Source: a virus
Lineage: Duplodnaviria; Caudoviricetes
DNA length: 56,832 nt
Direction: 5' to 3' (one strand)
Virus record (IMG/VR): IMGVR_UViG_3300008259_004318
Location: 1 to 56,832 of that record
The translations under genes were made by a program, and so were the position numbers. Below, in pieces: positions 8,927 to 56,351 of this stretch. Numbering within the stretch: the first letter of the stretch is position 1; every line of letters starts with the position of its first letter. The notes beneath the pieces are model-generated. The model worked only from the letters and a program-made list of their open reading frames with translations. It made no database searches and was not told the origin of the DNA.

Positions 8927-8947
8927 TATTTATAAAATAAAATTGTT

Positions 8948-12550: not shown

Positions 12551-12566
12551 AAAATATTTATTTTAA

Positions 12567-14876: not shown

Positions 14877-15008
14877 TATCGCTTAGTCATCGGCGATTAA
14901 TAAGGACGATGACGGGGTTTTTGAGTAGTTTCTTAAATCCATAAACCTTAAAGAAAGGGAGGTGTTCCAAAATCTAAGAAAGGTGTTTCGAAAGAAACAC
15001 CTTTTCTT
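14877..15008 (+). ncRNA. candidate structured ncRNA with an extended 16S rRNA 3'-end-complementary tract
   Basis: Pairings ATCGC/GCGAT, GTCATCG/CGATGAC (pseudoknot) and TAAGG/CCTTA; AGAAAGGGAGGTGTTCCA at 14952-14969; no start codon follows; terminator downstream. Confidence 0.55.
14979..15008 (+). terminator. intrinsic terminator
   Basis: AAAGGTGTTTC-GAAA-GAAACACCTTT perfect 11-bp stem, GNRA loop, pyrimidine tail. Confidence 0.75.
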
Positions 15009-15029
15009 CTATTAGGGTATTTATTATAT

Positions 15030-15800: not shown

Positions 15801-15803
15801 AAA

Positions 15804-16227: not shown

Positions 16228-16258
16228 AAGTAAATAATATTTATTAAAAAAAGAAAAA

Positions 16259-17422: not shown

Positions 17423-17439
17423 AATATTTATTTTATAAA

Positions 17440-17455
17440 AAGGTTATATAACCTT
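17440..17455. promoter_or_regulatory. perfect 16-bp palindrome AAGGTTATATAACCTT
   Basis: Lies between TATTTAT (17425-17431) and the ATG at 17478; function unknown. Confidence 0.4.
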
Positions 17456-17477
17456 AATACATAATTAAGTCATAAAT

Positions 17478-21512: not shown

Positions 21513-21523
21513 TTTTTATTATC

Positions 21524-22150: not shown

Positions 22151-22185
22151 TTATATCATTCGCTATATTTATTAAATAAAGTTTC

Positions 22186-28389: not shown

Positions 28390-28569
28390 ATGAAATATAG
28401 TTTATGTCAATTCGAATATGGTTATGAGGGTCAATTCTATCAAGAAAGTAATGAAGGAGGACTAGTTAGATTTTTAGATCTTAATTGTAATACTATGAAT
28501 TTAATCCCACCATATGGGTATTTTGTTGTTGAAGATAACGTACCAAAACCTGATTGTATAACAGAATAA
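28390..28569 (+). CDS. small hypothetical protein (59 aa, absent from the ORF track)
   Basis: MKYSLCQFEYGYEGQFYQ...PKPDCITE* exactly fills the gap between flanking genes. Confidence 0.7.
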   Translation: MKYSLCQFEYGYEGQFYQESNEGGLVRFLDLNCNTMNLIPPYGYFVVEDNVPKPDCITE

Positions 28570-28574
28570 TATGT

Positions 28575-29504
28575 ATGATAGATTACTCAAATATACCATC
28601 AATTACAAATCACCAAACTTTTTTTGCAACAGGTACTGATGTTTGGCAAACTTGGCAAAAACCAAGAAACTGTAATTTTGTTTATATTACAGCAATTGGT
28701 GGCGGTGGAGGTGGTGGTTCTGCTCAAGTTACATCAGGTGATGGTGGAGGAGGTGGAGGTGGAGGTTCATCATCTATAACAAGTATTTTAGTTCCTTCAG
28801 TTTTAATACCTGATACTCTTTATGTTTATGTTGGTCTTGGGGGTGATGGTGGTACTGCTGGTGGTGATGGTAGTGCTGGTCAACTATCTTACGTTACAAT
28901 TTTACCAAATACCACAACATCAAATACATTAATTAGGTCTGGTTCATCTAGTGCTAGTGGTGGACAAGTAGGGACAACGTTATCTGCCGGGTTAGGAGGA
29001 AGTGGAGGTTTAGGTTTTGTTAGTCCTCAAAATGGGTTTTTTTCAAGTTTAGGTATAATCACTACCACTACTGGTGATGATGGTGCAAATGGAGGAGCGC
29101 CAGGTTTTAACGCAGGTAATACCAAAACCGCTTTGTCTACTTTACCTTTAACAGGTGGAGGTGGAGGTGGAGGTAAATCAAACACAAATGGTGGTGCTGG
29201 TGGTAGTATTTTGGCTGGTGGTGTTTTAGGGAGAGTTGCTGGTGGTGTCGGTGCAACAACCGGTGGCCCTGGAGGTAATGGAGTACAAACAATAACCCCT
29301 CAAAATCTAACTTATTCATCAACAGAGTTTCCTTTTGCAACAACAGGAGGTGCTGGTGGCGGTGGTAGGTCTAGTGGTGTTGCAGGTAATGGTGGTATCG
29401 GGTCAATTGGTTCAGGTGGAGGAGGTGGAGGTGCCGGTTCGGGTAACCCAAACGCAAATGGAGGTCGAGGTGGTAACGGGTTAGTAATAATAAGCGCTTT
29501 TTAA
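28575..29504 (+). CDS. glycine-rich tail-associated protein, paralog 1
   Basis: WQTWQKP...IGGGGGGG...GGNGLVIISAF; start moved to ATG 28575 by comparison with paralog 2. Confidence 0.75.
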   Translation: MIDYSNIPSITNHQTFFATGTDVWQTWQKPRNCNFVYITAIGGGGGGGSAQVTSGDGGGGGGGGSSSITSILVPSVLIPDTLYVYVGLGGDGGTAGGDGSAGQLSYVTILPNTTTSNTLIRSGSSSASGGQVGTTLSAGLGGSGGLGFVSPQNGFFSSLGIITTTTGDDGANGGAPGFNAGNTKTALSTLPLTGGGGGGGKSNTNGGAGGSILAGGVLGRVAGGVGATTGGPGGNGVQTITPQNLTYSSTEFPFATTGGAGGGGRSSGVAGNGGIGSIGSGGGGGGAGSGNPNANGGRGGNGLVIISAF

Positions 29505-29513
29505 ATTTAAATT

Positions 29514-30470
29514 ATGATAGATATATTTAATTTACCAAATATTAATAATAGTCAAGTATTTTATACACAAGGTAGTGGTATTTGGCAAACTTGGCAAAAA
29601 CCAAGAAACTGTAAATTTATTCACTTTACATTAATTGGTGGTGGAGGAGGTGGTGGCGGTGGAAGAGGGTCGAATTCTAACACCGCAGGTGGTGGTGCTG
29701 GTGGTGGATCATCTTCAGTGACTTCAGGGATTTTTCAAGCAAATCTTTTACCTGATACAATTTATGTTTTAGTAGATTCAGGAGGTCCTGGAGGTCTTGG
29801 AGGATCACCAGGCTTAGCCGGTAATAGCGGCTCAATCGGTAATTTATCTTTTGTTTCAGTTTCTACATCAACAGGTTCTACTGATGTTATTTTATCTAGC
29901 GGTGATGTTGCAGCGACTGGTGGTGGTGGTGGACTAATATCACTAGCATCAACTGCAGGTTCTGCGGGTACAACATTTAACGGTACTTCGGATGGTGTTT
30001 TTTCTTCTTTAGGTTTATTTTCAACAACCGCAGGTCAGGCAGGTGGTACAGGCATTAACAACGCTGCCGGTGGTAGTATAACAATTTCAAGAATTACAAC
30101 AGGAGGTGCTGGAGGTGGTGGTACGTCATCAGCTATATCATCATTTTCAGGTGGATCAATTATATCATCAGGGATTGTTCCACAAATTAATGGTGGAGCA
30201 TTAGGTTTAGGCGCAAACGGATCTGTTGGTTCCACAGGGTTTATAAGTTTAACCCCTTCAGACTTGGTTAGTGTAAAAAACCCTCTGATAACAACAGGTG
30301 GTGCTGGTGGAGGTGGGGGAACAAATAACGGTGCAGGTTCTTTTAATGGTGGTAATGGTGCAATAGGTGGTTTTGGTTCTGGCGGTGGAGGTGGCGGTGG
30401 TGCGTATAATGGTACAGGAGGTAATGGTGGCAAAGGGGGGGACGGTTTAGTAATTATAACCTGTTTTTAA
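29514..30470 (+). CDS. glycine-rich tail-associated protein, paralog 2
   Basis: Same architecture as paralog 1; 34 nt identical (28642-28675 vs 29581-29614). Confidence 0.75.
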   Translation: MIDIFNLPNINNSQVFYTQGSGIWQTWQKPRNCKFIHFTLIGGGGGGGGGRGSNSNTAGGGAGGGSSSVTSGIFQANLLPDTIYVLVDSGGPGGLGGSPGLAGNSGSIGNLSFVSVSTSTGSTDVILSSGDVAATGGGGGLISLASTAGSAGTTFNGTSDGVFSSLGLFSTTAGQAGGTGINNAAGGSITISRITTGGAGGGGTSSAISSFSGGSIISSGIVPQINGGALGLGANGSVGSTGFISLTPSDLVSVKNPLITTGGAGGGGGTNNGAGSFNGGNGAIGGFGSGGGGGGGAYNGTGGNGGKGGDGLVIITCF

Positions 30471-34226: not shown

Positions 34227-34439
34227 TGGTGGAGGTGGAGGGGCTCGAACCCTCGTCCATAACATCCTGTCAGATAAGGACTACACGTTTAGGTTAACAT
34301 TTTCTAATTTAAACCAACCACTGAAAGGTTATCAAGTACGTTGCCGTATATAAATGTGAATCAGTTTTTAAAGAGATTAACTCAGTCCCTACGTGCCCTT
34401 ATTCTTCAGCCGATACCTGTCAAATCCAAAAACACCCCC
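34227..34439 (-). ncRNA. ssrA: tmRNA, abnormally short (213 nt)
   Basis: 5' GGGGGTG...GGATTTGAC; 3' GACGAGGGTTCGAGCCCCTCCACCTCCACCA; acceptor stem with G3.U; helix-2 pairing ATAAGGGC/GTCCTTAT; candidate tag frame 34345-34304. Confidence 0.9.
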
Positions 34440-38699: not shown

Positions 38700-40745
38700 C
38701 TACAAAATGTTTTTTCTTTTTTTTGTAGGTTTTTTTATTTTAACCTCTGTTTTTTTATCTTTTTCGTTATAAGATAATGTAAATTTAGATCCTTTTTCTG
38801 GGCTGTCAGATATTATTTTATCAGTTACCGCATCATCAACCCACTTTTGAATTGTTCTTTTTAGTATTCTCGCACCAAACCTTGTGTCTGTACCCACAGA
38901 AATAATGTGTTTTTTCAAACTTTCTTCCACTTCTAATTCAAATTCAATTGATTTTATCCTTTCATAAACTTTTTCAAGTTCCAAGTCAACAATTTTCATT
39001 AGATCGGATTCATCTAAATCTTTAAAGTATATAATCTCATCGAATCTATTAATAAACTCAGGCGCAAATTTTTTAAATAACTCTTTTTCTAAAACAGATT
39101 TTACTTCTTCTTCCTTTTTTTCAATTTTTGAATTTGTAGAAAACCCAACACCCGTACCAAAATCTTGAACTATTTTTGTACCAACATTAGAGGTCATTAA
39201 AATTATACAGTTTTTGAAATTAATTTTTCTTCCGTGTCCGTCAGTTAAAAGCCCTTCATCTAAAATCTGTAAAAAGACGTTAAAAATTTCAGGGTGAGCC
39301 TTTTCAATTTCATCTAATAAAATAACAGAATAAGGTTTATTTTTAATTTTATTTAAAAATGGTGAACCGTCTTCATAACCAACATATCCAGGTGATGTTC
39401 CTGTTAATTTTGATGTTGCGATCTTATCTGAAAATTCACTCATATCTAACCTAATAAGTGCGTCCTCACTATTAAACATATGTTTTGCTAATTGTTTTGC
39501 TAATTCAGTTTTACCGACACCTGAATTACCAATTAATAATCCACTAAATATTGGTTTTTTAGGGTCGTTTAATCCGACCTTATTTCTTTGTATTGCTTTT
39601 GTTATTTTTGCAACTGCGTCACCTTGACCAATAACTTTTGTTGATAAAGTGTCTTTTAATGTTTTAAGTATTTCTGTTTCATCAGTTGAGATTTTAGATA
39701 TCGGAATTTTTGTTATTAATGATGCAACATCATAAACAACATCTTCAGTGACTTCTCTTTTAAATAAATTTCTATTCTTCTCAAACTCAGACTTTTCTCT
39801 TTCTAAGTCATTTAAAATTTTTCTTTCTTTATCTCTAAGATTTGCTGCCTCCTCATACCTTTGGCTATTAATAACTTTTACTTTTTCTTCTTTAATCTCT
39901 TGTGCCTGTCTTTTTAGATCTTCAATAATTTCAGGTAATTTAATCTCAACTTGTGATCTTGCACCAACCTCATCAATAATATCAAATGCCTTATCGGGAA
40001 ACTCTCTATCTGTAATATATCTATCAGCCAATTCAACACATAGTTTTAATATATCATCACTATATTTTACTTTATGGTGGTTTTCATATCTATCTTTTAC
40101 GTTTTTAAGTATTTGTAATGTTTCTTCTTTTGTTGATGGATCAACCATTACTTTTTGGAATCTTCTTTCTAATGCTCCGTCCTTCTCAATGTTTTTTCTA
40201 TATTCTTCTAACGTTGTTGCTCCGATACATTGTAATTCACCTCTTGATAGTGCTGGTTTAAATATATTTGACGCATCCATTGATCCTGATGAATTTCCAG
40301 CACCAATCATTGTATGGATTTCATCAATAAAAACAATAATATCTGGATTGTTATATAATTCTTCCATAATAACTTTCATTCTTTCTTCAAACTGACCCCT
40401 ATATTTTGTTCCCGCAACAATTGATGTCATATCTAAAGAAACAATTCTCTTACCTGATAAATTTTGTGGACAATCACCCTCAAATATTTTTTTAGCTAAA
40501 CCTTCAACAATCGCGGTTTTACCACAACCAGGTTCTCCTAATATTATTGGGTTGTTCTTTTTTCTTCTTGATAGAATTTGTGCAATTCTATTAATTTCAT
40601 TTTCTCTACCGACAACAGGATCTAATTTTCCTTCTTCTGCTAGTTTTATAAGGTCTCTTGAAAAGTTATCTAAAACAGGTGTTTTTGATTTTAATTCAGT
40701 ATTTTTATTTTTAGATTTTTCTGATTCGTCAAATGATTCAATCAT
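38700..40745 (-). CDS. clpC: ClpC/ClpA-type AAA+ protease ATPase lacking the Clp N-terminal repeats
   Basis: GEPGCGKT and GNSGVGKT Walker A; IVFIDEIH and ILLDEIEKAH Walker B; central UVR YEEAANLRDKE; GVGF ClpP-docking loop. Confidence 0.92.
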   Translation of the reverse strand: MIESFDESEKSKNKNTELKSKTPVLDNFSRDLIKLAEEGKLDPVVGRENEINRIAQILSRRKKNNPIILGEPGCGKTAIVEGLAKKIFEGDCPQNLSGKRIVSLDMTSIVAGTKYRGQFEERMKVIMEELYNNPDIIVFIDEIHTMIGAGNSSGSMDASNIFKPALSRGELQCIGATTLEEYRKNIEKDGALERRFQKVMVDPSTKEETLQILKNVKDRYENHHKVKYSDDILKLCVELADRYITDREFPDKAFDIIDEVGARSQVEIKLPEIIEDLKRQAQEIKEEKVKVINSQRYEEAANLRDKERKILNDLEREKSEFEKNRNLFKREVTEDVVYDVASLITKIPISKISTDETEILKTLKDTLSTKVIGQGDAVAKITKAIQRNKVGLNDPKKPIFSGLLIGNSGVGKTELAKQLAKHMFNSEDALIRLDMSEFSDKIATSKLTGTSPGYVGYEDGSPFLNKIKNKPYSVILLDEIEKAHPEIFNVFLQILDEGLLTDGHGRKINFKNCIILMTSNVGTKIVQDFGTGVGFSTNSKIEKKEEEVKSVLEKELFKKFAPEFINRFDEIIYFKDLDESDLMKIVDLELEKVYERIKSIEFELEVEESLKKHIISVGTDTRFGARILKRTIQKWVDDAVTDKIISDSPEKGSKFTLSYNEKDKKTEVKIKKPTKKRKNIL

Positions 40746-44831: not shown

Positions 44832-46610
44832 ATGTCTTTATCAAAAGAACAAGCACTTTTAGAATATGCTAAATGCGTAAATGACACACCATACGCGTTA
44901 AAAACGTATTTACAAACTTACGACAATACACAATCACAGTACGTACCTTTAGAATTATTTAATGACCAAGTAACCCTTGTAAAAGATTATGATACTTGTG
45001 AGGAAAATATAGCACTAAAATACCGACAAGCGGGAGTATCAACAGTAACATCCGCATGGGCATCAAAAAGGTTGGTATTTGCAAACAAGAAAAAACCCGA
45101 AAAAATCCTAATCATTGCAAACAAAATGGATACTGCCGTTGAGATGGCGAATAAAGTTAGATCATTTGTTGACCAATGGCCAAAATGGATGGGTGTTGGG
45201 TTTTCATCAGAAAAAAACTCACAAAGACACTTTAAATTAACGAATGGTTGTGAGGTTAAGGCGGTTGCAACATCAAAAGATGCCTTACGTGGTTATACAC
45301 CAACAATACTTATTTTTGATGAGGCAGCATACATCAATGCAGATGAAGACTTTTGGTCTGCATGTATGGCATCCCTTTCAACAGGAGGTAAAGTTATTGT
45401 AATTTCAACACCAAATGGATTTGACCCAATTTATTATTCTATTTACAGTCAGGCGGTTAAAGGTATGAATGACTTTAGAATTACTGAAATGTATTGGTTT
45501 AGGGATCCAAGATATTCTAAAGATTTAAAATTGGTTAAATGTGATGATATTGTTCATTACATGTTAAATAGAGGTGACTATGAAGATAATGAAATTACAA
45601 TAGATTATAGTAATATAAAAGTTAGTGAGAGAAACTTTGAAGAAATAAAACAAAAAATAGAAAACGAAGGGTATAAACCTTATAGTTCTTGGTTTGAGGC
45701 CATGGCCAAAAAATTAAAGTTTGATAAGAGAAAGATTTCACAAGAGTTGGAATGTAATTTTTTAGGTTCGGGGGATAATGTTATACCTGCTGAAACTATG
45801 AAAAAAATTAAAGAAAAACATATTAAAGAACCCGAAAATAAATTTATGGGTGGTGCCCTTTGGCAATGGAAAGAACCCGTTGTTGGTCACAGATACATAA
45901 TGGGTGTTGACGTTTCAAGAGGTGATAGTGAAGATTTTAGCACTTTATCTATAATTGATTTTGATGAAAGAGAACAAGTATTAGAATATATTGGTAAAGT
46001 TCCTCCTGATATTTTAGCAGAAATTGCCTATAAATGGGGTACCATGTATAACGCATTTATTGTGACCGATATTACTGGTGGAATGGGTGTTTCGACATCA
46101 AGAAAACTACAAGAACTTGGTTATAAAAATTTATACGTTGATGGTGTTAATCCTGCAGATAAATGGAAGTGGGATCCTAAAAATCAAGATAAAATACCAG
46201 GAATTAACTTTAACTCAAAGAGGGTTTTAATAATACAGGCATTTGAAGAAGCGTTAAGATTTGATTTTGTTATGAGGTCACAAAGGTTGTTTAACGAATT
46301 AAATACCTTTGTCTATGTAAACGGTAGGCCTGACCACCAAAAAGGACAACATGATGATTTAATAATGGCATTTGCTATGGCAGTTTATGTTGGGGAAACT
46401 TCATTCGCACAATTAGAAAAGGCTACGGAGCATGCAAAGGCGATGTTAGAGTCTTGGTCTGTAGAATCTAATAAATATACTGGAGATTATACAAGTTTTA
46501 ATCCTGGATTACCAATTTCAACATCACAAAACGAAGTTTATAATAGAAGTCAAGTTACTAAAAGTGATTATGAAAAGTATTTATGGTTATTCGGACCTAA
46601 AAGGGTTTAA
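44832..46610 (+). CDS. terL: terminase large subunit (T4 gp17-like)
   Basis: LKYRQAGVST Walker A variant, LIFDEAA Walker B, ISTPNG, QELECNF, GVDVSRG, HDDLIMA. Confidence 0.93.
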   Translation: MSLSKEQALLEYAKCVNDTPYALKTYLQTYDNTQSQYVPLELFNDQVTLVKDYDTCEENIALKYRQAGVSTVTSAWASKRLVFANKKKPEKILIIANKMDTAVEMANKVRSFVDQWPKWMGVGFSSEKNSQRHFKLTNGCEVKAVATSKDALRGYTPTILIFDEAAYINADEDFWSACMASLSTGGKVIVISTPNGFDPIYYSIYSQAVKGMNDFRITEMYWFRDPRYSKDLKLVKCDDIVHYMLNRGDYEDNEITIDYSNIKVSERNFEEIKQKIENEGYKPYSSWFEAMAKKLKFDKRKISQELECNFLGSGDNVIPAETMKKIKEKHIKEPENKFMGGALWQWKEPVVGHRYIMGVDVSRGDSEDFSTLSIIDFDEREQVLEYIGKVPPDILAEIAYKWGTMYNAFIVTDITGGMGVSTSRKLQELGYKNLYVDGVNPADKWKWDPKNQDKIPGINFNSKRVLIIQAFEEALRFDFVMRSQRLFNELNTFVYVNGRPDHQKGQHDDLIMAFAMAVYVGETSFAQLEKATEHAKAMLESWSVESNKYTGDYTSFNPGLPISTSQNEVYNRSQVTKSDYEKYLWLFGPKRV

Positions 46611-46650
46611 ATTAAATTAATTGGTCTTATTTTTTAAATAAAAAAAAATT

Positions 46651-48462
46651 ATGGCAGAACAAAAATATACAGTTTGGCAAAGGTTAGGTAGGGTTTTCGG
46701 ACCTAACGCAACAATGGACCAGCAAGCACCGGTTTTTAAATTCGATAAAAAACAATTATTAAAAACCGCAGATAAAAATGAATACGAGAAAGAAAAACTT
46801 GAAGCCCAACAAACAATGTATGTTGGTAAACAATGGCAAAGAGTTGAGACAAATCTATACCAACAGGCGGTTTATTATGAACCAACAAGAATGGCATCAT
46901 ATTATGATTATGAGTCTATGGAATACACACCTGAAATTTCAGCCGCTTTAGATATATACGCCGAAGAATCAACAACACCCGATCAAGACGGTTTAATTTT
47001 GAGGGTTTATTCTGAATCTAAAAGAATAAAACAAGTATTAACCGATCTATTCACAAACAAACTTGACATAAACACTAATTTACCTATGTGGACAAGAAAC
47101 ACATGTAAATTTGGTGATAATTTTATTTATTTAAAATTAGATCCCGAAAATGGGGTTGTTGGGTGTCAACAATTACCTAACATACAAATAGAAAGATTAG
47201 AAAAGGGTATGAGATTCCAACCTGACAAATACTCTCAAGAAATGGAAAACGATGCTTTGAAGTTTGTGTGGAAAGAAAAAAACATGGAGTTTAATACTTG
47301 GGAAGTTGCTCACTTTAGAATATTGGGAGACGATAGAAAACTACCTTATGGTACTTCTATGTTGGAAAAGGCTAGACGTATTTGGAAGCAATTATTACTT
47401 TCAGAAGATGCGATGTTGGTATATAGGGTTTCAAGGGCACCTGAAAGAAGAGTATTCAAAATTTTTGTAGGTAACATGGACGATAAAGATGTCGATGCAT
47501 ATGTTCAAAAAGTCGCAAATAAATTTAAAAGGGATCAAATTGCGGACCCACAAACAGGGAATGTAGATTTAAGATATAATCAATTGGCGGTTGATCAAGA
47601 TTATTTTATTCCTGTTAGAGATGCCGCTGCGGGTAATCCAATTGACACATTACCGGCAGGTCAAAACTTGGCGGAAATTGCGGACATTGAGTATATCCAA
47701 AAGAAATTAGTTACTGCACTTAGAATACCAAAGGCGTATTTAGGATTTGAAGAGGCTGTTGGTGACGGTAAAAATTTATCATTATTAGATATTAGATTTG
47801 CAAGAACTATTAATAGAATTCAAAAATCTATGATTGCGGAATTAAACAAAATTGCAATCATACATTTATTTTTATTGGGGTTTGAAGATGAGCTTACAAA
47901 CTTTACGTTGAGTCTAAATAACCCATCAAAACAAGGTGAACTTTTATCTATTGAAATTTGGAAAGAAAAAATAACTCTTTATAAAGATGCGGTTGCTGAA
48001 GTTGCTAATTCATTAGCACCGACATCAGCATCCTGGGCTAAAAAACACATTTTAGGGTTTTCTGATGAAGAAATAAGGTTAGATATCCAACAACAAAGAA
48101 TAGAAAGGGCAGTTTATGGTGAGTTAGCAAAAACACCTGAAGTTATTACAAAAACAGGAATATTCGATAATATTGACCAATTATATACTAAAAAAGATGC
48201 GGGAGCGGCTCCTGGTGGGGCACCTGCACCTGGTGGAGCACCTGCACCTGGTGGAGAACCTGCACCTGGTGGGGCACCACCTGCACCTGAACCACCAGCA
48301 CCTGGTGGAAGTGAGGTAACACCTGAAAGTTTTAAAAAAAATGATTTAAATTTAATATTAGAAGATAGTATTTTTTATGGTAAAACTTCATTAGATTTAT
48401 CAAAAGGAAGACTATCTTTAGATCAAGTAGACAAAAAATTGAAAGATTTAATTGATAAGTGA
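46651..48462 (+). CDS. portal protein (T4 gp20-like)
   Basis: PEISAALDIYAEE, LSEDAMLVYRVSRAPERRVF, QDYFIPVR, IDTLPAGQNL, ALRIPKAYL; PGGAPA tail repeats. Confidence 0.92.
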   Translation: MAEQKYTVWQRLGRVFGPNATMDQQAPVFKFDKKQLLKTADKNEYEKEKLEAQQTMYVGKQWQRVETNLYQQAVYYEPTRMASYYDYESMEYTPEISAALDIYAEESTTPDQDGLILRVYSESKRIKQVLTDLFTNKLDINTNLPMWTRNTCKFGDNFIYLKLDPENGVVGCQQLPNIQIERLEKGMRFQPDKYSQEMENDALKFVWKEKNMEFNTWEVAHFRILGDDRKLPYGTSMLEKARRIWKQLLLSEDAMLVYRVSRAPERRVFKIFVGNMDDKDVDAYVQKVANKFKRDQIADPQTGNVDLRYNQLAVDQDYFIPVRDAAAGNPIDTLPAGQNLAEIADIEYIQKKLVTALRIPKAYLGFEEAVGDGKNLSLLDIRFARTINRIQKSMIAELNKIAIIHLFLLGFEDELTNFTLSLNNPSKQGELLSIEIWKEKITLYKDAVAEVANSLAPTSASWAKKHILGFSDEEIRLDIQQQRIERAVYGELAKTPEVITKTGIFDNIDQLYTKKDAGAAPGGAPAPGGAPAPGGEPAPGGAPPAPEPPAPGGSEVTPESFKKNDLNLILEDSIFYGKTSLDLSKGRLSLDQVDKKLKDLIDK

Positions 48463-48482
48463 TATTTATAAATAAAAATTAT

Positions 48483-49214
48483 ATGAACACTTTTGGTACA
48501 ATTAAAACAAAAATAGAAAACACGTCAGTTGAACTCGCAAAAAAACCTGAATTTAAAAGATTTATATTTGAATTAAATTCATTGATATTAAAAAATAAAG
48601 ATCTGTGTGAATTATATTACATATATGATGATTTATCATCTAATAAAGGTTTACCTTCAGATATTGCGAATGATTATATAAATGAAACTGTTGAATATTC
48701 CCAAGTATTACTTGAAAGTCAATCTAAAAGATTAGAAGATGTTTCTTTTTGGATAAACTCTTGGAACAATAAAAATCAAAACAATTATTCAGACATTGAT
48801 AACGCGATATACACTACGGGGATTAGAAATTTAGAAAGTATTTTAGAATCTAAAAAAAATATAAAAAATACAATTACAAAAGAAGAAAATAAAACACCCG
48901 TAATTGAGAGTGTTAATTTACCAATATCTTCAATGGTAAAAATTGCAAACGAAAATTTAAAAAAAGAATTAGGATCTTTAAATGAAAATGATAAAAACCA
49001 ACTGGATGAAATATTATCATTAACAGGAGAAGAATTAAAAGAAAATTTTAATGAAGTAAAAAAAATTGTTTTGGAAAATCTTAAACAATCCTTAAACGAG
49101 TCTGTGGATAATGATTTACAAAACACTATAAACAAAACAATTAATAAGATAATGGATACCAAGTGTAATCATTATGATTATTATAAACTAAAAAAATTAA
49201 GTTTGGGACTATGA
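48483..49214 (+). CDS. hypothetical head-module protein
   Basis: Start moved to ATG 48483 after TATTTAT 48463-48469. Confidence 0.7.
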   Translation: MNTFGTIKTKIENTSVELAKKPEFKRFIFELNSLILKNKDLCELYYIYDDLSSNKGLPSDIANDYINETVEYSQVLLESQSKRLEDVSFWINSWNNKNQNNYSDIDNAIYTTGIRNLESILESKKNIKNTITKEENKTPVIESVNLPISSMVKIANENLKKELGSLNENDKNQLDEILSLTGEELKENFNEVKKIVLENLKQSLNESVDNDLQNTINKTINKIMDTKCNHYDYYKLKKLSLGL

Positions 49215-49480
49215 AAAAATTTTTTAAAGGAATCGGTAGATTGTTTATGGACAGTCAAGGAAACGCATCTTCAAAAAGGTTTGTAGGGATTCTTTGTGGT
49301 GTTTCTCTTTGCATTACTTTATATGCGAACAGTTATACACACGGAGATATCAAACCTTCAGACACATTAGTAAATGCTGTTGCTATGTTGGCGTTTGGTT
49401 GTTTAGGTCTTACCTCTACAGAAAAGATTTTTGGAAAAAAATCAGAAGAGAAAAAAGAAGAAACTCAAGAAGAAATTTGA
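49211..49480 (+). CDS. small two-TM membrane protein (holin-like)
   Basis: SSKRFVGIL + two hydrophobic helices + charged C-tail. Confidence 0.55.
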   Translation: MKKFFKGIGRLFMDSQGNASSKRFVGILCGVSLCITLYANSYTHGDIKPSDTLVNAVAMLAFGCLGLTSTEKIFGKKSEEKKEETQEEI

Positions 49481-49653
49481 TTTTTCTGCTTATATTGAGC
49501 CTTTTTAATTTGAGCCCTTCGTTTAACGGAGGGTTTTTTATATTCTTGACGTTCTTGTAATTTTTGGATTTGTTTTGTTTTATATATTTTAAACTTATAT
49601 GTTTTTAATGCTTGTTCAAGAGACTTTTCATTTTTTACGTGTACTATAATCAT
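49465..49653 (-). CDS. rpsU: ribosomal protein bS21 (Bacteroidota-like)
   Basis: MIIVHVKNEKSLEQALKTYK...ERQEYKKPSVKRRAQIKKAQYKQ; 62 aa from ATG 49653. Confidence 0.9.
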   Translation of the reverse strand: MIIVHVKNEKSLEQALKTYKFKIYKTKQIQKLQERQEYKKPSVKRRAQIKKAQYKQKNQISS

Positions 49654-49759
49654 AAGTTTTTTTGGTTTTACAATATAAATAGTAAGTATTTTTTTAATTT
49701 TTGACAAGTTTATCATTTTTAATTATAATTGTTAAAAATAAACTCGAAAGAAATGAAAA

Positions 49760-50209
49760 ATGAAAAAAGGAAAAACATCAAAATTAAATATTTTTGATGA
49801 TGCAAAATGTCACTATGGTACAGTCGACTCTAAAGAATTAAAATCAATTTATTTAGTATTACAAACATGGGTTGAACCAATAGTTGATGACGATAATTGG
49901 ACCAAAATAACAGGATTAATAAAAAGACAAATTTTACATACATTATTAGAAGTTGTTGATTTTACATTATTTGAAAGGAAACAAATAGTCGATCTTGATT
50001 TAAGAACCAGCGGAATTCAAAAAAACAAAAAAAGTTTTTTAAATTTAGAAATAACTTTATTTGTTCATGAAAAAAATGTTGATTTTAAATCGTTAATTCT
50101 AAGGTCAAAAATAAAAAAAATAATATCTTCAGTTTATTATGATGACCTAAAAAAATCTAAGTATTTTATTTTAAGTAAAACAAAAATAAAAGAAACCGAA
50201 TTAATATAA
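49760..50209 (+). CDS. hypothetical protein
   Basis: 149 aa, divergent from rpsU. Confidence 0.7.
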   Translation: MKKGKTSKLNIFDDAKCHYGTVDSKELKSIYLVLQTWVEPIVDDDNWTKITGLIKRQILHTLLEVVDFTLFERKQIVDLDLRTSGIQKNKKSFLNLEITLFVHEKNVDFKSLILRSKIKKIISSVYYDDLKKSKYFILSKTKIKETELI

Positions 50210-50229
50210 TATTTATCATAAAAAACATT

Positions 50230-50940
50230 ATGAAAATATTAGGACCAAACGACACAGGTAAAGGAATTTTAGTTGAGTGGGATGCGGGGACAATCAATCC
50301 CAATGAATTTAGGAATAGTCAAGTTATAAAAGAATCTTATGGTCAATTAGACCATTCTAAACCTTTTGTTTTTTATGCTACATTACAAAAATATGGAGTA
50401 CCAAATAGAAATGGTAGAATTTATCCTGAAAAAATATTAAAAAGAGAAGCCGACAGATATAAAGAAATGATTAATAAAGGTATGTCAATATCTGAACTTA
50501 ATCACCCCGAATCATCTCTTATTGATTTAGATAGGGTGGCTCACTTAATTACTGATGTGTGGTGGGAGGATAATGTATTGATGGGTAAGATTAAATTACT
50601 AACCACTCCAGGGTTTCATGAAAGAGGTATTGTTTCTTCTAAAGGCGATGTTGCTGCTAACATGATGAGACAGGGTGTTACAATGGGGGTTTCTTCAAGA
50701 GGTGTGGGTTCGTTAGTAAAAAAAGGAGAACAGAATGAAGTGCAAGAAGATTTTGAACTTATATGTTTTGATTTAGTTTCCTCACCTTCAACTCCAGGAG
50801 CATACCTTTATTTAAATAAAGAAGATAGGCCAAATTACGAAGAAAAACTAACGGAGAATGAAAATATAGAATCAAATTCTAATCCACTTAGTAAATCTAT
50901 TGACTTAATGAAAAGATTATCCGATTATTTGGATAAATAA
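50230..50940 (+). CDS. prohead core protease (T4 gp21-like)
   Basis: NRNGRIYP, ELNHP, GVSSRGVGS, FDLVSSPSTPGA. Confidence 0.92.
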   Translation: MKILGPNDTGKGILVEWDAGTINPNEFRNSQVIKESYGQLDHSKPFVFYATLQKYGVPNRNGRIYPEKILKREADRYKEMINKGMSISELNHPESSLIDLDRVAHLITDVWWEDNVLMGKIKLLTTPGFHERGIVSSKGDVAANMMRQGVTMGVSSRGVGSLVKKGEQNEVQEDFELICFDLVSSPSTPGAYLYLNKEDRPNYEEKLTENENIESNSNPLSKSIDLMKRLSDYLDK

Positions 50941-50952
50941 AATTATTAAGAC

Positions 50953-51162
50953 ATGGACGAAAAATATTTTGTAGCTAGAGTAACTACCGATATGGTAGAT
51001 GAAAACACAGGAAAAATTAAAAAAATTAAAGAAGAAAAATTAGTTAAAGGGTATTCACCAACAGATGTTGAGGCTAAGGTAACAAAGGCTTATGAAACAT
51101 ACACAATGGATTGGAGAATAACTGCTATTGTTGAGAGTAAAATCGACGAAGTAATAGAATAA
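50953..51162 (+). CDS. small hypothetical protein (DUF4494-like)
   Basis: YFVARV...ENTGKIKKIKEEKLV...TDVEAKV...ITAIVESKIDEVI. Confidence 0.6.
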   Translation: MDEKYFVARVTTDMVDENTGKIKKIKEEKLVKGYSPTDVEAKVTKAYETYTMDWRITAIVESKIDEVIE

Positions 51163-51189
51163 AATAATTTTTTTATAGTGAATTAATTT

Positions 51190-51221
51190 AACGGGAGTCA
51201 TAACGACTCCCGTTTTTTTTT
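51190..51221 (+). terminator. intrinsic terminator
   Basis: AACGGGAGTC-ATAAC-GACTCCCGTT followed by a T-run. Confidence 0.9.
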
Positions 51222-51302
51222 GTTTAAACTTAGTTTTTTTCAAAGGGCAGTATATTTATTTATAAAATAAACAATAATAAAGCAAAAAATATTGCATTTT
51301 TT

Positions 51303-52733
51303 ATGGAAAAAAACAAATCTGTAGTTGAACAAACTTTATTGCAAATTAAGGCAGTAGAGGATGCTATCAGTGAAAACGCAAAAGGAATACTTGCTTCTAC
51401 AATGAAACAAGAAATCAGTGAACTAGTAAAAGAATCCCTAAAAGGGAGAAAAAATCTACACGAACAAGATGAAAATGATCCTGAAATGGATGAACCAGAA
51501 ATTGAAGGTGAAGATCAGCCCGCGACTGACATAGACCCTGAAATGAGTGGAGAAGAAGACGGTGTAGAAGATTCGGAGGTAACGGACGTAGATGTTGCGA
51601 TGGGAGCCGAAGAAGATAATCAAGAAGAATTACCACCATTAGATATGACTCAGGCTTCTCCAGAAGAAGTATTACGAGTATTTAAGGCAATGGGAGATCA
51701 AGACGGTATAATTGTTAAAAAACAAGATGATGGTGACATCCATTTAGTTGATAGTAACAACAATACCGAATACTTAATTTCATTTGGTGGTGAATCTGAA
51801 CCAACACAAGATAATGTAATGGAAAATGAAGATAAAGATGATTTTTTAAGTGCACTAAACGATTCTTTGTATGGTAGTGAAATGGGAGAACAGTTTGATG
51901 ATGAAGATTTTATGTCTTTTGATGATGAATTTAGTGAAGGTTATGAAGAAATGGGTGAAAATGAAAATTTTTACGAAATGTCTGAAGATGACTTAGAAGC
52001 GGTTATGGAAACATTTAAATATGGTAAAAAACCTAACATGGAAGGAGGATTCAACGAAAAAATGAAGGAAGCACCTAAAAGACATGGAAAAAATGGTAAC
52101 GCTAAAAGTGCTACTAAATACCCTTCTAAAATGAAACACGGTGTTACTGAAACTGATTACGAAGAAGAAGAGTTTGAAGCTTGGGAAGAAGAAGAGTATG
52201 AAGATGTTATGGCTTATGAACAAGATGCTGAAATAGAAACTACTGAAGCATCAAGAACTTTAGGTAATGGTAAATATTGGGGTAGAAAAGGTTTACCTAA
52301 ACCAAGAACTGCACCTAAACACCTAAGAGTAGAATCGGTTAATAAAGAATTGGTAGTTTTAAGAGAAAAAAATGAAGAATATAAAAAGGCGTTAGACTTC
52401 TTTAGAAATAAATTAAATGAAGTTGCTGTTTTTAATTCTAATCTTGCTTATTCTACAAGATTATTTACAGAACATTCAACAACAAAACAAGAAAAGATTA
52501 ATATTCTTAGAAGATTTGACAACGTTGAAACTTTAAAAGAATCAAAAAATCTTTACAAAACAATCAAAAACGAATTAGATGGAGAAGGGACTAAAAATGT
52601 TGTTAAGGAGTCAATAACTGAAAAAGTTATTAAAACACCTAAAACAGGATCGGCAACAAATCTAATCGAAAGTAAAACGTATGAGAATCCTCAGTTCATG
52701 AGAATGAAGGATTTAATGGCAAAAATTAAATAA
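51303..52733 (+). CDS. prohead scaffolding/core protein
   Basis: Highly acidic, coiled-coil C-terminus, located between protease and major capsid. Confidence 0.7.
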   Translation: MEKNKSVVEQTLLQIKAVEDAISENAKGILASTMKQEISELVKESLKGRKNLHEQDENDPEMDEPEIEGEDQPATDIDPEMSGEEDGVEDSEVTDVDVAMGAEEDNQEELPPLDMTQASPEEVLRVFKAMGDQDGIIVKKQDDGDIHLVDSNNNTEYLISFGGESEPTQDNVMENEDKDDFLSALNDSLYGSEMGEQFDDEDFMSFDDEFSEGYEEMGENENFYEMSEDDLEAVMETFKYGKKPNMEGGFNEKMKEAPKRHGKNGNAKSATKYPSKMKHGVTETDYEEEEFEAWEEEEYEDVMAYEQDAEIETTEASRTLGNGKYWGRKGLPKPRTAPKHLRVESVNKELVVLREKNEEYKKALDFFRNKLNEVAVFNSNLAYSTRLFTEHSTTKQEKINILRRFDNVETLKESKNLYKTIKNELDGEGTKNVVKESITEKVIKTPKTGSATNLIESKTYENPQFMRMKDLMAKIK

Positions 52734-52759
52734 AAAATAAACTTTTTTAAAAAACTGTA

Positions 52760-52766
52760 TATTTAT
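52760..52766 (+). promoter_or_regulatory. putative late promoter TATTTAT (representative copy, before the major capsid gene)
   Basis: The same 7-mer sits 4-65 nt upstream of about 20 starts in the window. Confidence 0.65.
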
Positions 52767-52809
52767 ATACAAAATAATAAAAAAATAAACTCTAATTAAA
52801 AATTAAAAA

Positions 52810-54684
52810 ATGGGAGCATTATTAGAATCAGGTCTTGTTGGTAATATCGGGTTAAAACACCTTAAAGTTATCAAAGAAGATACAATTAACAAATGGGATA
52901 AATTAGGATTCCTAGACGGTCTTAAAGGACACGTTAAAGAGAACATGGCACAATTATATGAAAACCAAGCGTCTCACCTAATAAACGAAGCAGCATCTAC
53001 TGATAGTTCAGGTTCATTCGAAACTGTAGTATTTCCTATCGTTAGACGCGTATTCTCTAAATTGTTGGCTAACGATTTAGTTTCTGTACAAGCAATGAAC
53101 TTACCTATCGGTAAATTGTTCTACTTTGTACCAAGAATCCAAGGTTATTCTTCTTCAACCGATCAAACTGCGGCTAATGCTTACGGTGGTAACGCATATC
53201 ACTATTCACCTGTTGGATCTCCATCTAATACAGGTACTACAGGTGTTGGTGCTGGTTACCCACCTAACGCAAACGCGTTTTCTAAAAGTCTTTATGATTT
53301 ATTTTATGAAGGTGCTGAAGGTCAATTAAGCCCTCCAGGATTATTTGATTACTCAAAAGGAAAATGGTCAGCGGTTACTTCAACTGCAACCGTTAAAGTT
53401 TGGAGTAATGGTTCATTAACTAGTGCAACAAACCAATACCCAAGTGGAACTAACGTAAGAAAAGTTATCTTGGAACTTGGTGGATTTACTCAAGCAGGTA
53501 CAGGAAAATTAATTGGTCCTGATGGTAGTGAAGTTGATTCTGAAACTTTCCTTTCTGATTTAAGAGTTTTCTCTAACGTTGCAAAGGCTTCTTCAGTTCT
53601 ATCAGCATCTACACCATGTAATGTTGTTTATAACTCAGACGGTAATCCTAATTCATTATTGTTTAGAGTTGTTACTCAACAATATGGTAAAGGTATTGTA
53701 ACACCTACATCTACTCAAACACCAACATCATGGGCATCAACAGGAAATGGTGGTTCATATGATAATATCTGTTCTCAAGATGGTAAAATCTTGTTAGAAG
53801 TGGATCTTTCTTGTCCTGTATGTGCTGATTGTGATGCTACATCATTAGACGGATACACAGGAACTACTTTAACAGGTGGTTTAAGTGGTACTCCATTCTC
53901 AGCAGTTTGGAGAAGATACGCTAACTTAGAATTTGAAGACCAAATTGGTGAGGTTTCTTTTGATTTAGAATCAGTAACTGTTTCTGTAACTGAAAGAAAA
54001 CTAAGAGCACAATGGTCACCTGAATTGGCACAAGACGTTTCTGCATTCCATAACATCGACGCTGAGGCTGAATTAACAGCATTATTGTCTGAGCAAGTGG
54101 CGGCAGAAATCGATAGAGAAATCTTGAGAGACCTTAGAAAGGGAGCGGCTTGGAACCTAAGATGGGATTACAACGGATGGAGAAGAATTTCTCAAACAAC
54201 ATCATACACTCAAAAAGATTGGAATCAAACTTTGATTACAGCAATCAACCAATTGTCAGCACAAATCCACAAATCTACTTTAAGAGGTGGTGCTAACTGG
54301 ATCGTTGTTTCTTCTGAAGTTTCTGCAATCTTTGATGACCTTGAGTACTTCCACGTATCTAACGCTTCTCCGGAGCAAGATCAGTACAACATGGGTATCG
54401 AAAGAGTTGGTACATTAGCAGGTCGTTACCAAGTGTATAGAGATCCATACTTCCCAGCTAACCAAATCCTTATCGGACACAAAGGTTCATCTTTGTTAGA
54501 CACAGGATATGTATATGCTCCGTATGTACCTCTACAATTAACACCTACAATGTATAACCCATTCAACTTTACACCGATCAAAGGTATAATGACGAGATAC
54601 GCTAAGAAAATGGTTAACAACCGTTTCTATGGTAGAGTTACAGTTGATGGAGTTAGAACATTCGACTTACAAGAATTGAGATAA
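52810..54684 (+). CDS. major capsid protein (T4 gp23-like)
   Basis: FPIVRRVF..LLANDLVSVQAM, RKLRAQWSPELAQD..AFH.IDAEAELT, EIDREI, YAPYVPL, PIKGIMTRYA. Confidence 0.95.
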   Translation: MGALLESGLVGNIGLKHLKVIKEDTINKWDKLGFLDGLKGHVKENMAQLYENQASHLINEAASTDSSGSFETVVFPIVRRVFSKLLANDLVSVQAMNLPIGKLFYFVPRIQGYSSSTDQTAANAYGGNAYHYSPVGSPSNTGTTGVGAGYPPNANAFSKSLYDLFYEGAEGQLSPPGLFDYSKGKWSAVTSTATVKVWSNGSLTSATNQYPSGTNVRKVILELGGFTQAGTGKLIGPDGSEVDSETFLSDLRVFSNVAKASSVLSASTPCNVVYNSDGNPNSLLFRVVTQQYGKGIVTPTSTQTPTSWASTGNGGSYDNICSQDGKILLEVDLSCPVCADCDATSLDGYTGTTLTGGLSGTPFSAVWRRYANLEFEDQIGEVSFDLESVTVSVTERKLRAQWSPELAQDVSAFHNIDAEAELTALLSEQVAAEIDREILRDLRKGAAWNLRWDYNGWRRISQTTSYTQKDWNQTLITAINQLSAQIHKSTLRGGANWIVVSSEVSAIFDDLEYFHVSNASPEQDQYNMGIERVGTLAGRYQVYRDPYFPANQILIGHKGSSLLDTGYVYAPYVPLQLTPTMYNPFNFTPIKGIMTRYAKKMVNNRFYGRVTVDGVRTFDLQELR

Positions 54685-54896: not shown

Positions 54897-56351
54897 ATGA
54901 AAAACTTAAAAACAACAATCACAACACTTTTAATCAGTTTAGTAACTGTAATATCTTTCGGACAAAAAAGTTCAGTATGGGCTACCGTAGAAAATGTAGA
55001 ACAACTTCAAAAAAATCAACAATTTATTTCAATACTTACGGACTTACATACTGACTTAACATACTATAAAGCATTTGCATCTTCAAAACAAGAAAAATTA
55101 CAAAATGTATATGAATTTACTTGTGCTAATTGTGACGTAACCGATTTATACGTATCATTAAGTAGAGTTAGTGGATTAAAAGGTGTTGAGTATGGTCCTA
55201 CATATGAAACATTAGAAGTACCAAATGACTATAGTTTAGTTTCTACAACAAATTGGGCTTTAGATTTAATCGGGGCTGAAAACGCTTGGGTTTATACAAC
55301 AGGGGACTCAACAATAAACGTGGCGGTATCAGATCAAAACTTTTACACAAATCACGAAGAATTAACAGGTAAAATCAATTATTATGACAACACAAACACG
55401 GCAACAAAAACTCACGGTACGGCCGTGGCAACAATAGTTGCAGGAAACACAAATAATTCAGTAGGTCTTGCATCAATCGGTTATAACACAACACTTAACC
55501 TTTATAGAATGAACTATAATGATATGTTAATTGCTTCTTACAACGGTGCTAGAGTAATTAACTTATCTTGGGCATCAGGGTGTAATTATAACACATATGC
55601 TCAAATGGCGATAGATGAGGTTTATAATAACGGAACATTTATCGTTGCATCGGCAGGAAACGGAACAACATGTGGAAGTCCTAACGCATTAGTATACCCA
55701 GCATCTTACAATCACGTATTCGCAGTAACAAGTGTTGGTTCACAAGATAATATTGAAAAAACAATCGGTAATCCAAACACAAGACACCAAACAAATTCAA
55801 GTGTAGATATTTGTGCACCTGGTCACAACGTACCTTTAACAGCAGCACCAGGATGGTATTTGAATTCTTCAGGAACATCATTCGCAGCACCTTACGTTAC
55901 AGGAACTGTGGCTCTTATGTTATCTGTTAAACCTGATTTAACAAATCAAGAAATAGATTCAATTTTAAGATTAACGGCAACTAACATAGATATTTTAAAT
56001 CCAAACTATATTGGTAAAATAGGTTCAGGAAGATTAAACTCAGGATTGGCAGTTCAAACAGTATGGAATATGATTCAAGAAGTAGAAGACGGAAATAACG
56101 GTCATGGTAACGACGCTGACGGTGTAGATGGTTCTAACCCTGGACAAGGTGGAGGAAACAACGGTAATCAAGGTGGAAATGGAAATCACTTCGGGTGGGA
56201 TAACAAAGATAAAGTAACTTTAGGTGATGACTTATCAGATGTGACAGTAATTGATATAAATGGTAAAATAACAAACATAGAAAACGCATTACCTGGATTC
56301 TACTTTGTTGTTAGCAATAATTTAATAATCAAAAAAATATACAAAAATTAA
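54897..56351 (+). CDS. secreted S8 (subtilisin-like) serine peptidase with a T9SS-like C-terminal domain
   Basis: Signal ...ISFG|Q; VAVSD, HGTAVA, SAGNG, SGTSFAAP; C-terminal VIDING...LPGFYFV...KKIYKN. Confidence 0.88.
   Translation: MKNLKTTITTLLISLVTVISFGQKSSVWATVENVEQLQKNQQFISILTDLHTDLTYYKAFASSKQEKLQNVYEFTCANCDVTDLYVSLSRVSGLKGVEYGPTYETLEVPNDYSLVSTTNWALDLIGAENAWVYTTGDSTINVAVSDQNFYTNHEELTGKINYYDNTNTATKTHGTAVATIVAGNTNNSVGLASIGYNTTLNLYRMNYNDMLIASYNGARVINLSWASGCNYNTYAQMAIDEVYNNGTFIVASAGNGTTCGSPNALVYPASYNHVFAVTSVGSQDNIEKTIGNPNTRHQTNSSVDICAPGHNVPLTAAPGWYLNSSGTSFAAPYVTGTVALMLSVKPDLTNQEIDSILRLTATNIDILNPNYIGKIGSGRLNSGLAVQTVWNMIQEVEDGNNGHGNDADGVDGSNPGQGGGNNGNQGGNGNHFGWDNKDKVTLGDDLSDVTVIDINGKITNIENALPGFYFVVSNNLIIKKIYKN

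Follow-up and report, generated by a model that had tools for sequence, protein, structure and literature searches.

Why does a large phage carry a gene for the ribosomal protein bS21 among its head genes, on the opposite strand, and is that gene subject to the feedback that governs rpsU in the bacterial host? The question is raised by the IMG/VR virus record IMGVR_UViG_3300008259_004318, whose whole length of 56,832 bases was analysed here and is called the window. In Flavobacterium johnsoniae, a pocket of bS21, bS18 and bS6 holds the 3' tail of 16S ribosomal RNA (rRNA), and bS21, including its residue Tyr54, occludes the anti-Shine-Dalgarno (anti-SD) sequence (Jha et al., 2021, PMC7797042; McNutt et al., 2023, PMC9976891). 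Tyr54 stacks on A1534 of the tail (PMC7797042). Loss of bS21 or a Y54A substitution increases the translation of reporters with a strong Shine-Dalgarno (SD) sequence about 3-fold, with a 3-fold effect of Y54A on rpsU'-gfp, and rpsU is the one gene with an extended SD, best read by ribosomes without bS21 (PMC7797042, PMC9976891). An earlier reading of the window, made from its sequence alone, proposed that the phage copy escapes this feedback and that it may form a two-part system with a distant decoy RNA. Our best explanation as a whole, to which we give a probability of roughly 0.55, is that the gene is a phage copy of bS21, set in an antisense cassette and uncoupled from the host loop, whose product would keep the anti-SD hidden.

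The gene is a phage copy of bS21

The longest open reading frame (ORF) at the locus spans 49465..49716 on the minus strand (83 codons), and the start common to all relatives is the ATG at 49653-49651 (Table 1). The protein read from this start matches the Pfam family PF01165, Ribosomal_S21 (E 4.5e-11, 42.7 bits against a cut-off of 27), with residues 4-56 on profile positions 2-54 of 55; a six-frame search gave the same match at 41.7 bits. With phmmer, residues 1-57 aligned without a gap on residues 1-57 of the bS21 chain z of PDB entry 7JIL (E 7.7e-10), which is the F. johnsoniae ribosome (PMC9723584). The Pfam match and the ungapped alignment identify the gene, by homology, as a phage copy of ribosomal protein bS21. 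The sequence-only reading had placed a Tyr exactly at residue 54, within KAQY, and the alignment agrees: KAQY lies over KAAY, and Tyr54 falls on Tyr54 of 7JIL. Four residues in the N-terminal helix of the window protein, F21, I23, Y24 and Q28, correspond to R, F, D and T of the 7JIL chain.

For comparison, the best 80 of the 117 relatives of the window bS21 confirmed in IMG/VR were fetched. Together with two more, these made 82 locus identifiers, 79 of which gave a full ORF, so that 80 ORFs including that of the window were available; 79 of the 80 had at least 60 nucleotides (nt) of upstream sequence, representing 43 distinct upstream sequences. Residue 54 is Tyr in 71 ORFs, His in six and Phe in two, and in the last one a deletion has moved the Tyr one place earlier. 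Using the phage protein as a query in the first genome scan brought up no bacterial relative, and an alignment of 42 bS21 sequences held no stretch conserved enough for use as a query. The host rpsU loci, from 80 Flavobacteriaceae genomes, were retrieved with a single bacterial-type representative.

A known group of phages accounts for much of this. Chen et al. (2022, PMC9723584) described bS21 phages of 293-331 kb with a GC content of 31-34%, in which bS21 always lies on the reverse strand inside a terminase-portal-protease-capsid block, carries an aromatic residue at position 54, which is Tyr in 54 of 61 sequences, and is found as RNA together with structural-gene RNA, a sign of late co-expression. 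The window record is rated 18% complete at 56.8 kb, implying a genome of about 300 kb, and its GC content is 31.7%; both values fit the published ranges. The likeness extends to the reverse-strand position between terminase/portal and protease/capsid, a layout shared by the related records, to the aromatic and mostly Tyr residue 54, to the phage-type changes of the N-terminal helix and to the freshwater source, and we see nothing different in kind. Judging from these shared features, the gene belongs to the published bS21 group of freshwater Bacteroidota phages of about 300 kb. The sequence-only reading was thus right that bS21 beside head genes is known from large Bacteroidota phages, and the core of the finding, namely a gene set antisense among head genes, its Tyr54 and its late co-expression, is already in print (PMC9723584). 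The main text of that paper, its supplements aside, makes no mention of the TATTTAT motif, a missing SD, a plus-strand terminator inside the ORF, a divergent consensus promoter or an RNA complementary to 16S rRNA. What is new here is TATTTAT in 79 of 79 loci, the lack of a strong SD in the relatives against an extended SD in 80 host leaders, and the plus-strand terminator inside the ORF.

A leader without Shine-Dalgarno sequence

Pairing energies were calculated against a sequence of the 16S 3' tail that we take to be that of Bacteroidota. At seven positions it agrees with the residue names given in PMC7797042. The 21-nt leader of the window bS21 gene, ATTGTAAAACCAAAAAAACTT, pairs with this tail at -2.0 kcal/mol, the median for 49 window genes being -1.5. 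Among the 79 phage bS21 leaders the median is -2.0 and the strongest value -6.2 kcal/mol; a weak AGGA occurs in only 10, and by pairing energy none of the 79 has a strong SD. The A-rich, SD-less leader of the sequence-only reading therefore holds for the window, and its relatives lack a strong SD as well.

The host gene is built differently. All 80 Flavobacteriaceae rpsU leaders carry an extended SD, reading ..AAAGAAAGGAGGT.. or ..AAAGAGAGGAGGT.. about 10 nt before the ATG, and pair with the tail at a median of -17.6 and at best -21.5 kcal/mol. A host promoter box, TAnnTTTG, stands about 35-37 nt before the ATG in 79 of the 80 loci. Nine window genes have this box within 90 nt, and phage bS21 is not among them. 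Thus, phage bS21 has neither the extended SD nor the host-type -7 box TAnnTTTG, and has TATTTAT instead.

TATTTAT as a candidate promoter core

In the window, TATTTAT stands 21 nt ahead of the bS21 ATG, and it recurs 18-22 nt upstream of the ATG in 79 of 79 loci, with their 43 distinct upstream sequences. It is also found in sense within 60 nt of the start in 20 of 49 crudely called window genes, whereas 1000 shuffles that kept base composition only averaged 3.3 and never exceeded 11, so the motif noted in the sequence-only reading is confirmed and is more frequent in the window than chance would give. The spacing from motif to ATG ranges from 4 to 46 nt in window genes. In co-directional spacers TATTTAT points with the downstream gene 13 times, against 3 times for its reverse complement. 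Among the genes preceded by it are those for the protease (50230), a scaffold-like protein (51303) and the capsid protein (52810), and several of the tail module. Before the protease gene the motif occupies a fixed place in 14 of the 14 relatives whose start was found by pattern (17 loci), and before the gene that follows the protease it was found in 0 of 13, which fits the reported co-transcription of the protease with the gene downstream of it (PMC9723584). We read TATTTAT as the core of a putative phage-specific promoter class common to structural genes, and infer that the bS21 promoter is late. In the open-access literature we found no paper on a TATTTAT phage promoter.

The late promoters of phage T4 carry the word TATAAATA. 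Like these, TATTTAT is a short AT-rich motif without a -35 element that precedes structural genes, in a phage with T4-type head genes; unlike them, the gene-oriented word is TATTTAT(A/T), the reverse complement of the T4 word. The T4-like TATAAATA is itself found in sense, in place of TATTTAT, upstream of a few window genes (41365, 5824), before 41365 directly after a terminator-like hairpin, and these genes may represent a second promoter class. In eight cases (genes 1513, 2050, 2688, 4100, 12567, 15030, 34506 and 41636) TATTTAT ends only 4-6 nt before the ATG; if the motif is -10-like, these messages would be leaderless or nearly so.

Proposed uncoupling from the host feedback

Under the explanation that we prefer, bS21 would be transcribed together with the structural genes, and its SD-less message would be read by ordinary bS21-carrying ribosomes, like every other SD-less phage message. 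Its synthesis would hence not be tied to the host loop, where efficient reading of rpsU is confined to ribosomes that lack bS21. Having kept both Tyr54 and the KPSV region, which hold the 16S tail in the pocket, phage bS21 would then enter the host 30S subunit and hide the anti-SD; the changes F21, I23, Y24 and Q28 in the N-terminal helix may alter which mRNAs are chosen. Of the escape from feedback claimed in the sequence-only reading, the observable part stands, in that both host controls are absent from the sequence and Tyr54 is kept. As both the extended SD and the TAnnTTTG box are missing from the phage gene, it is a sound inference that it would escape the host feedback loop, and it is reasonable to suppose that its product would be made by ordinary ribosomes whatever the number of bS21-free ones, and would keep the tail hidden.

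Several observations weigh against this explanation. Leaders in this genome are as a rule A-rich and SD-less, so the missing SD may reflect a general phage style rather than selection for escape. Nor is SD-lessness general among phage bS21 genes, since that of a megaphage (GenBank LR756501, 735 kb) has AAAGGAGGA 4 nt before the ATG (L220, 1441-1500). As to the promoter, TATTTATA is the reverse complement of TATAAATA, and in a divergent spacer the strand that is served cannot be proved by sequence alone; the strand assignment in the bS21 spacer therefore rests on the genome-wide orientation bias. In divergent spacers as a whole the two orientations are equally common (9 to 8), as two diverging promoters would give, and the excess of TATTTAT was measured against shuffles alike in base composition alone.

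An insulated antisense slot in the head module

As the sequence-only reading had it, rpsU lies antisense inside the head module: the neighbouring genes for the large terminase (TerL), portal, protease and capsid are all on the plus strand (Table 1). Upstream of TATTTAT a TTGTCAAA box is present in 79 of 79 loci, and in the window it forms, on the plus strand, part of a TTGACA-17 nt-TATAAT site that faces the gene at 49760-50209 and the prohead protease. This is the only perfect site among 12 found in 48300-50400, a region whose total count of sites is no higher than in shuffles. The hairpin with T run inside the bS21 ORF is one of 4 terminator-like sites found, where shuffles gave 0.5, and a strict pattern recovers it in 61 of the 80 ORFs. 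The plus-strand unit ending with the gene at 49211-49480 would stop at this hairpin and the next would restart at TTGACA-N17-TATAAT, which makes bS21, as far as these predicted signals go, a self-contained antisense cassette between two plus-strand units of the head module.

The convergent gene at 49211-49480 has no Pfam or PHROG family and shows a weak likeness (E 0.009) to an ORF in the same slot of the relative described below; it is possibly the 'bS21_CN' neighbour of PMC9723584. On the minus strand the sole terminator-like site after bS21 lies at 48914-48893, so that the bS21 transcript may run antisense through 49211-49480. Chen et al. found similar RNA levels for bS21 and its opposite-strand neighbour (PMC9723584), and such antisense read-through, combined with unstranded RNA data, could explain this similarity.

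The slot can also hold a different gene. A relative here called G013 (281 kb, 96% complete), whose protease is 89% identical to that of the window, keeps the TTGTCAAAA box and TATTTAT, and in the place of bS21 (contig L127, 704-919, minus strand) has a 71-amino-acid (aa) ORF with a lipoprotein-like signal and a very basic tail, for which no S21 match and no Pfam family was found. Since this variant occurs in three contigs from three samples (L127, L229, L230), it is not an assembly accident. In an unrooted tree of three head proteins (454 columns), G013 lies on the window's side of the sole strong split (100/99) and bS21-bearing phages lie on both sides, so that, with the tree unrooted, loss or replacement of bS21 in G013 is the simpler reading. 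The slot is thus a cassette, with the same control region and a different small gene in G013.

This exchange bears on whether phage bS21 acts in late host ribosomes at all. The protein could be packaged and act at entry, as was raised as a possibility in PMC9723584, or it could be an RNA-binding protein with another target; its place among head genes and its replacement, under the same control region, by a small, very basic, lipoprotein-like ORF would suit either role. We consider both very improbable. The match to bS21 is full-length and ungapped and takes in the rRNA-contacting C-terminal helix and Tyr54, the residue at position 54 is nearly always aromatic or His across the ORFs as counted above, and a pelagiphage bS21 enters Escherichia coli ribosomes, as cited in PMC9976891.

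A folded RNA that matches the 16S tail

The second half of the system proposed in the sequence-only reading is an RNA in the tail-gene module, directly after the stop codon of the gene at 12567-14876. An alignment of 16 distinct sequences gives it, in order, an H-type pseudoknot, a hairpin with a GUAG loop, a conserved unpaired stretch and a terminator. Over this fold 93.9% of cells are paired, against 44-55% when the partners are slid; none of 500 shuffles reached the observed score, and in 19 of the 31 pairs both partners vary. From its G-U pairs the RNA is assigned to the plus strand. On this covariation the RNA at 14878-15008 is real and folded. No Rfam family was matched at its gathering score, the best sub-threshold hit being BTnc060 (23.9 bits against 228.9). 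The element is present in all 11 viral loci that include the downstream gene, and a pattern scan found it in 18 contigs. In each of the 16 relatives that were aligned, the TATTTAT between its terminator and that gene is retained, reading GTATTTAT or ATATTTAT. We rejected the idea that the pseudoknot serves recoding, since the upstream stop codon is placed variably relative to it.

Within the conserved unpaired stretch lies the 17-mer AGAAAGGGAGGTGTTCC, which is the complement of the 16-nt tail that we assume plus one extra G. At -26.2 kcal/mol it is the strongest 16S-tail site in the window, the next being a site in coding sequence at -18.4, and it binds the tail more strongly than any of the 80 host rpsU leaders. 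It occurs once per record in five of five large related records. After it, at 14972-14977, stands ATC-TAA where host rpsU has ATG. Judged as an rpsU-like start region, the site, with 16 of 17 nt pairing, exceeds the 13 nt of complementarity expected of one and has neither start codon nor ORF: no shared reading frame follows the 17-mer, the relatives differing by 1 nt in length, and a small ORF from GTG 14962 was rejected on the same ground. The 5' arm of the terminator is a near-copy of the 17-mer without its GAG, and the lower part of the terminator stem, AAGAAAGGT paired with ACCTTTTCTT, does not vary among the 16 sequences; the top of the stem covaries. Our searches of the open-access literature brought up no report of a phage RNA with complementarity to the 16S tail.

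The exact 17-mer is also found in five unrelated viral loci, three times in coding sequence and twice between convergent genes of large viral contigs (L004 and L008). In the latter two, AGAAAGGGAGGTGTTCC lies in the loop of a 7-bp hairpin (L004 5882-5898, L008 1606-1622), and no bS21 was found in those fragments. These occurrences may be chance at this database size and are not counted as support.

Do bS21 and the RNA belong together?

The RNA was found in 19 contigs, 17 of which also cover the prohead protease; 16 of these 17 have bS21, the exception being G013, and the window has both. No contig was found that covers the RNA site and bears bS21 yet lacks the RNA. In five further bS21 contigs the RNA site is not covered: three have only a 34-36% identical paralogue without the element before it, and two have nothing. 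Association of the two features, which the sequence-only reading had offered as a check, is therefore seen in 16 of 17 informative contigs. By the head-protein tree, all the records in which they co-occur form one phage group, so shared descent explains the association, which amounts to about one evolutionary event. The distance between bS21 and the RNA is about 20-38 kb in different records (about 34.5 kb between the SD-like sequence and the bS21 gene in the window), and the two thus do not form a cassette. Because G013 keeps the RNA without bS21, the RNA is, on its distribution among these records, a separate, clade-wide module retained without need for phage bS21. In favour of a link, both would concern the same few nucleotides of the host ribosome.

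How such a link might work is suggested by the proposal that host rpsU feedback is a counter-defence against phage bS21 (McNutt et al., 2023, PMC9976891), which an rpsU-like decoy would defeat. The RNA would mimic the start of host rpsU, with an extended SD, the right spacing and AUC-UAA for AUG, would capture bS21-free 30S subunits and would block re-synthesis of host bS21, while phage bS21 from its SD-less message filled the ribosomes. Beside the energy of the 17-mer, which surpasses all host leaders, this role would account for the wording AAAGAAAGG..GGAGGT common to the RNA and host rpsU leaders, for a single copy per genome within a covarying fold whose centroid leaves the 17-mer unpaired, and for an ATC 7-8 nt past GGAGGT in the aligned relatives. 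TATTTAT also stands ahead of the upstream gene 12567-14876, and the part of that gene that was scanned (14300-14876) contains no terminator-like site, so the RNA may share the promoter class of bS21. Very stable complexes form on rpsU mRNA even without initiator tRNA (PMC9976891), and both features are present in nearly all informative contigs. We nevertheless regard the decoy as unlikely. Besides the single clade, the 20-38 kb and the G013 exception, it seems superfluous once the ribosomes are saturated with phage bS21; relatives differ in the G-run of the complement, both in length and in wording (GGGAGG, GGGGGG, GGGGGGGG, AGGAGA); and three other bS21 megaphages have no intergenic site, their only two SD-like 11-mer matches being in coding sequence and no commoner than a control pattern.

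The terminator itself may also be where bS21 is met. Its stem, in which an SD-like strand pairs with a look-alike of the 16S tail, could bind host or phage bS21, much as OLE RNA binds bS21 at an internal SD-anti-SD mimic (PMC12054373), and both the invariance of the lower stem under a covarying top and the near-copy of the 17-mer in the 5' arm would make sense for a protein-binding site. We consider this most improbable, since the mimic in the stem is without a CCUCC/GGAGG core, the invariance may equally reflect terminator strength or duplication, and OLE RNA is a Bacillota RNA with a different fold. Taking the decoy and protein-binding versions together, a true two-part system appears rather doubtful. 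The full form of the proposal would be a two-part takeover of anti-SD control, in which a late, SD-less bS21 escapes feedback and a folded rpsU-mimic RNA (17-nt super-SD, AUC-UAA) traps bS21-free 30S subunits or binds bS21, leaving the host unable to replenish bS21 as an answer to the counter-defence of McNutt et al.; we hold this to be unlikely as well. What stands of the two-part claim is that the RNA is real, folded and found together with bS21 in 16 of 17 contigs; what tells against it is the single clade and the RNA without bS21 in G013.

The RNA may instead have nothing to do with bS21, a possibility on the unlikely side that still deserves attention. It could be the folded 3' end and terminator of the gene at 12567-14876, and its position directly after that stop codon in the tail-gene module, the entry of the upstream ORF into the pseudoknot in some relatives, the terminator-like site, and its presence in 11 of 11 loci with the downstream gene and in the bS21-less G013 all agree with this. 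An ordinary 3' end accounts neither for the 17 nt that match the 16S tail, given that the host phylum avoids SD sequences, nor for a pseudoknot and hairpin with 17 covarying pairs. In another version the element would act as an attenuator that is sensed by ribosomes: once a 30S subunit sat on 14952-14968 with its P site at AUC 14972, the 5' arm of the terminator would be covered and transcription could continue into the tail-module genes. Such read-through would not be needed, since a TATTTAT of its own precedes the downstream gene.

Relation to known systems

With the autoregulated host rpsU (PMC9976891; PMC7797042), the phage shares the protein family and Tyr54, and the RNA at 14952-14968 uses the host's extended-SD wording. 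The difference is that the phage gene itself lacks the extended SD and TAnnTTTG. The SD-like sequence, at a distance of about 34.5 kb, exceeds that of the host in length (16 of 17 nt pair) and leads into ATC-TAA instead of an ORF. OLE RNA of Bacillota (PMC12054373) is likewise a non-coding RNA with an SD/anti-SD-like sequence and a link to bS21; phylum, size and fold differ, and the OLE mimic is an internal duplex with a CCUCCU core, whereas in the window RNA, known here from sequence alone, the full complement is single-stranded and the duplex has no such core. The bS21 of pelagiphage HTVC008M, one of several viral ribosomal proteins (Mizuno et al., 2019, PMC6375957), is also thought to enter host ribosomes, but its host phylum uses SD sequences, and neither anti-SD occlusion nor the logic of Tyr54 applies there.

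By itself the gene adds little, its clade, gene order, Tyr54 and late expression being in print. More useful is the concrete picture of a phage copy rewired relative to host rpsU, with another promoter class and no extended SD, in an antisense slot insulated by terminator and promoter that in one relative is occupied by a different small gene. These phages also possess a folded, conserved RNA that strongly matches the 16S tail, in a phylum that otherwise hides this tail. If bS21 and the RNA act together, they would form a viral system directed at anti-SD occlusion and the bS21 feedback, the first of its kind; if they do not, the RNA is still an unexplained new element in its own right.

Table 1. 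Positions of the bS21 locus, its head-module neighbours and the RNA element in the window
Feature	Position	Strand	Remarks
Phage bS21 (rpsU) coding sequence	49465..49653	-	62 aa; ATG 49653-49651, TGA 49467-49465; Tyr at residue 54
A-rich leader without Shine-Dalgarno	49654..49674	-	-2.0 kcal/mol with the 16S tail
TATTTAT, candidate phage promoter core of bS21	49675..49681	-	in 79/79 loci, 18-22 nt before ATG
Conserved TTGTCAAAA box	49699..49707	-	reads TTTTGACAA on +; supplies first hexamer of divergent promoter
TTGACA-17 nt-TATAAT promoter-like site	49701..49729	+	12/12 consensus; faces gene 49760-50209 and prohead protease
Intrinsic-terminator-like hairpin and T run	49512..49546	+	inside bS21 ORF (KPSVKRRA codons), 32 nt past stop of 49211-49480
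Convergent 89-aa membrane-like gene	49211..49480	+	3' end overlaps bS21 end by 16 nt
T4-type large terminase (TerL)	44832-46610	+	head-module neighbour
T4-type portal	46651-48462	+	head-module neighbour
S77 prohead protease	50230-50940	+	head-module neighbour
gp23-type capsid protein	52810-54684	+	head-module neighbour
Conserved structured RNA element (proposed decoy RNA)	14878..15008	+	pseudoknot, hairpin, terminator; covariation
Pseudoknot helices	14878-14882 with 14893-14897; 14886-14892 with 14907-14913	+	H-type
Hairpin	14915-14920 with 14935-14940	+	GUAG loop
AGAAAGGGAGGTGTTCC, 17-nt complement of Bacteroidota 16S 3' tail	14952..14968	+	one extra G; 16/17 nt pair, -26.2 kcal/mol
Terminator-like site	14976-14989 with 14994-15008	+	GC-containing hairpin with T run; 100% of cells paired; upper stem covaries
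TATTTAT	15018..15024	+	5 nt before ATG of gene 15030-15800, between terminator and that gene

Occurrence in sequence collections

DNA sequencing runs that contain the stretch come under the labels freshwater or lake water, several others under 'fungus metagenome'. In the GenBank phage collection a DNA search with 44832-54684 gave no match, and a protein search gave only six distant bS21 genes (39-52% identity). Two freshwater metatranscriptome runs contain 13% and 7% of sampled words of the stretch. Their contigs over 6001-26000, a region without bS21, are scattered and 150-250 nt long, with strand and ends unreadable, and no listed piece covers the RNA element. The 16 listed pieces have no letter that differs from the window, with DNA carry-over possible; because of this identity, the window phage or a near-identical one is therefore present in the RNA libraries, allowing for such carry-over.

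Other features of the window

A short transfer-messenger RNA (tmRNA) gene lies at 34227-34439 on the minus strand. It matches the whole Rfam tmRNA model over 213 nt (93.9 bits against a gathering score of 47) and its CCA end is encoded; a terminator-like hairpin comes next, and ARAGORN made no call there. Two adjacent plus-strand genes at 28554-30470 contain 12 of the window's 16 copies of GGAGGTG, and these repeats suggest that they encode glycine-rich repeat proteins of the tail module. The window further encodes a UvrC-like GIY-YIG nuclease (181-1455, minus strand), a ClpB-like double AAA+ chaperone (38700-40745, minus strand) and, directly after the capsid gene, a subtilase-family protease (54897-56351, plus strand).

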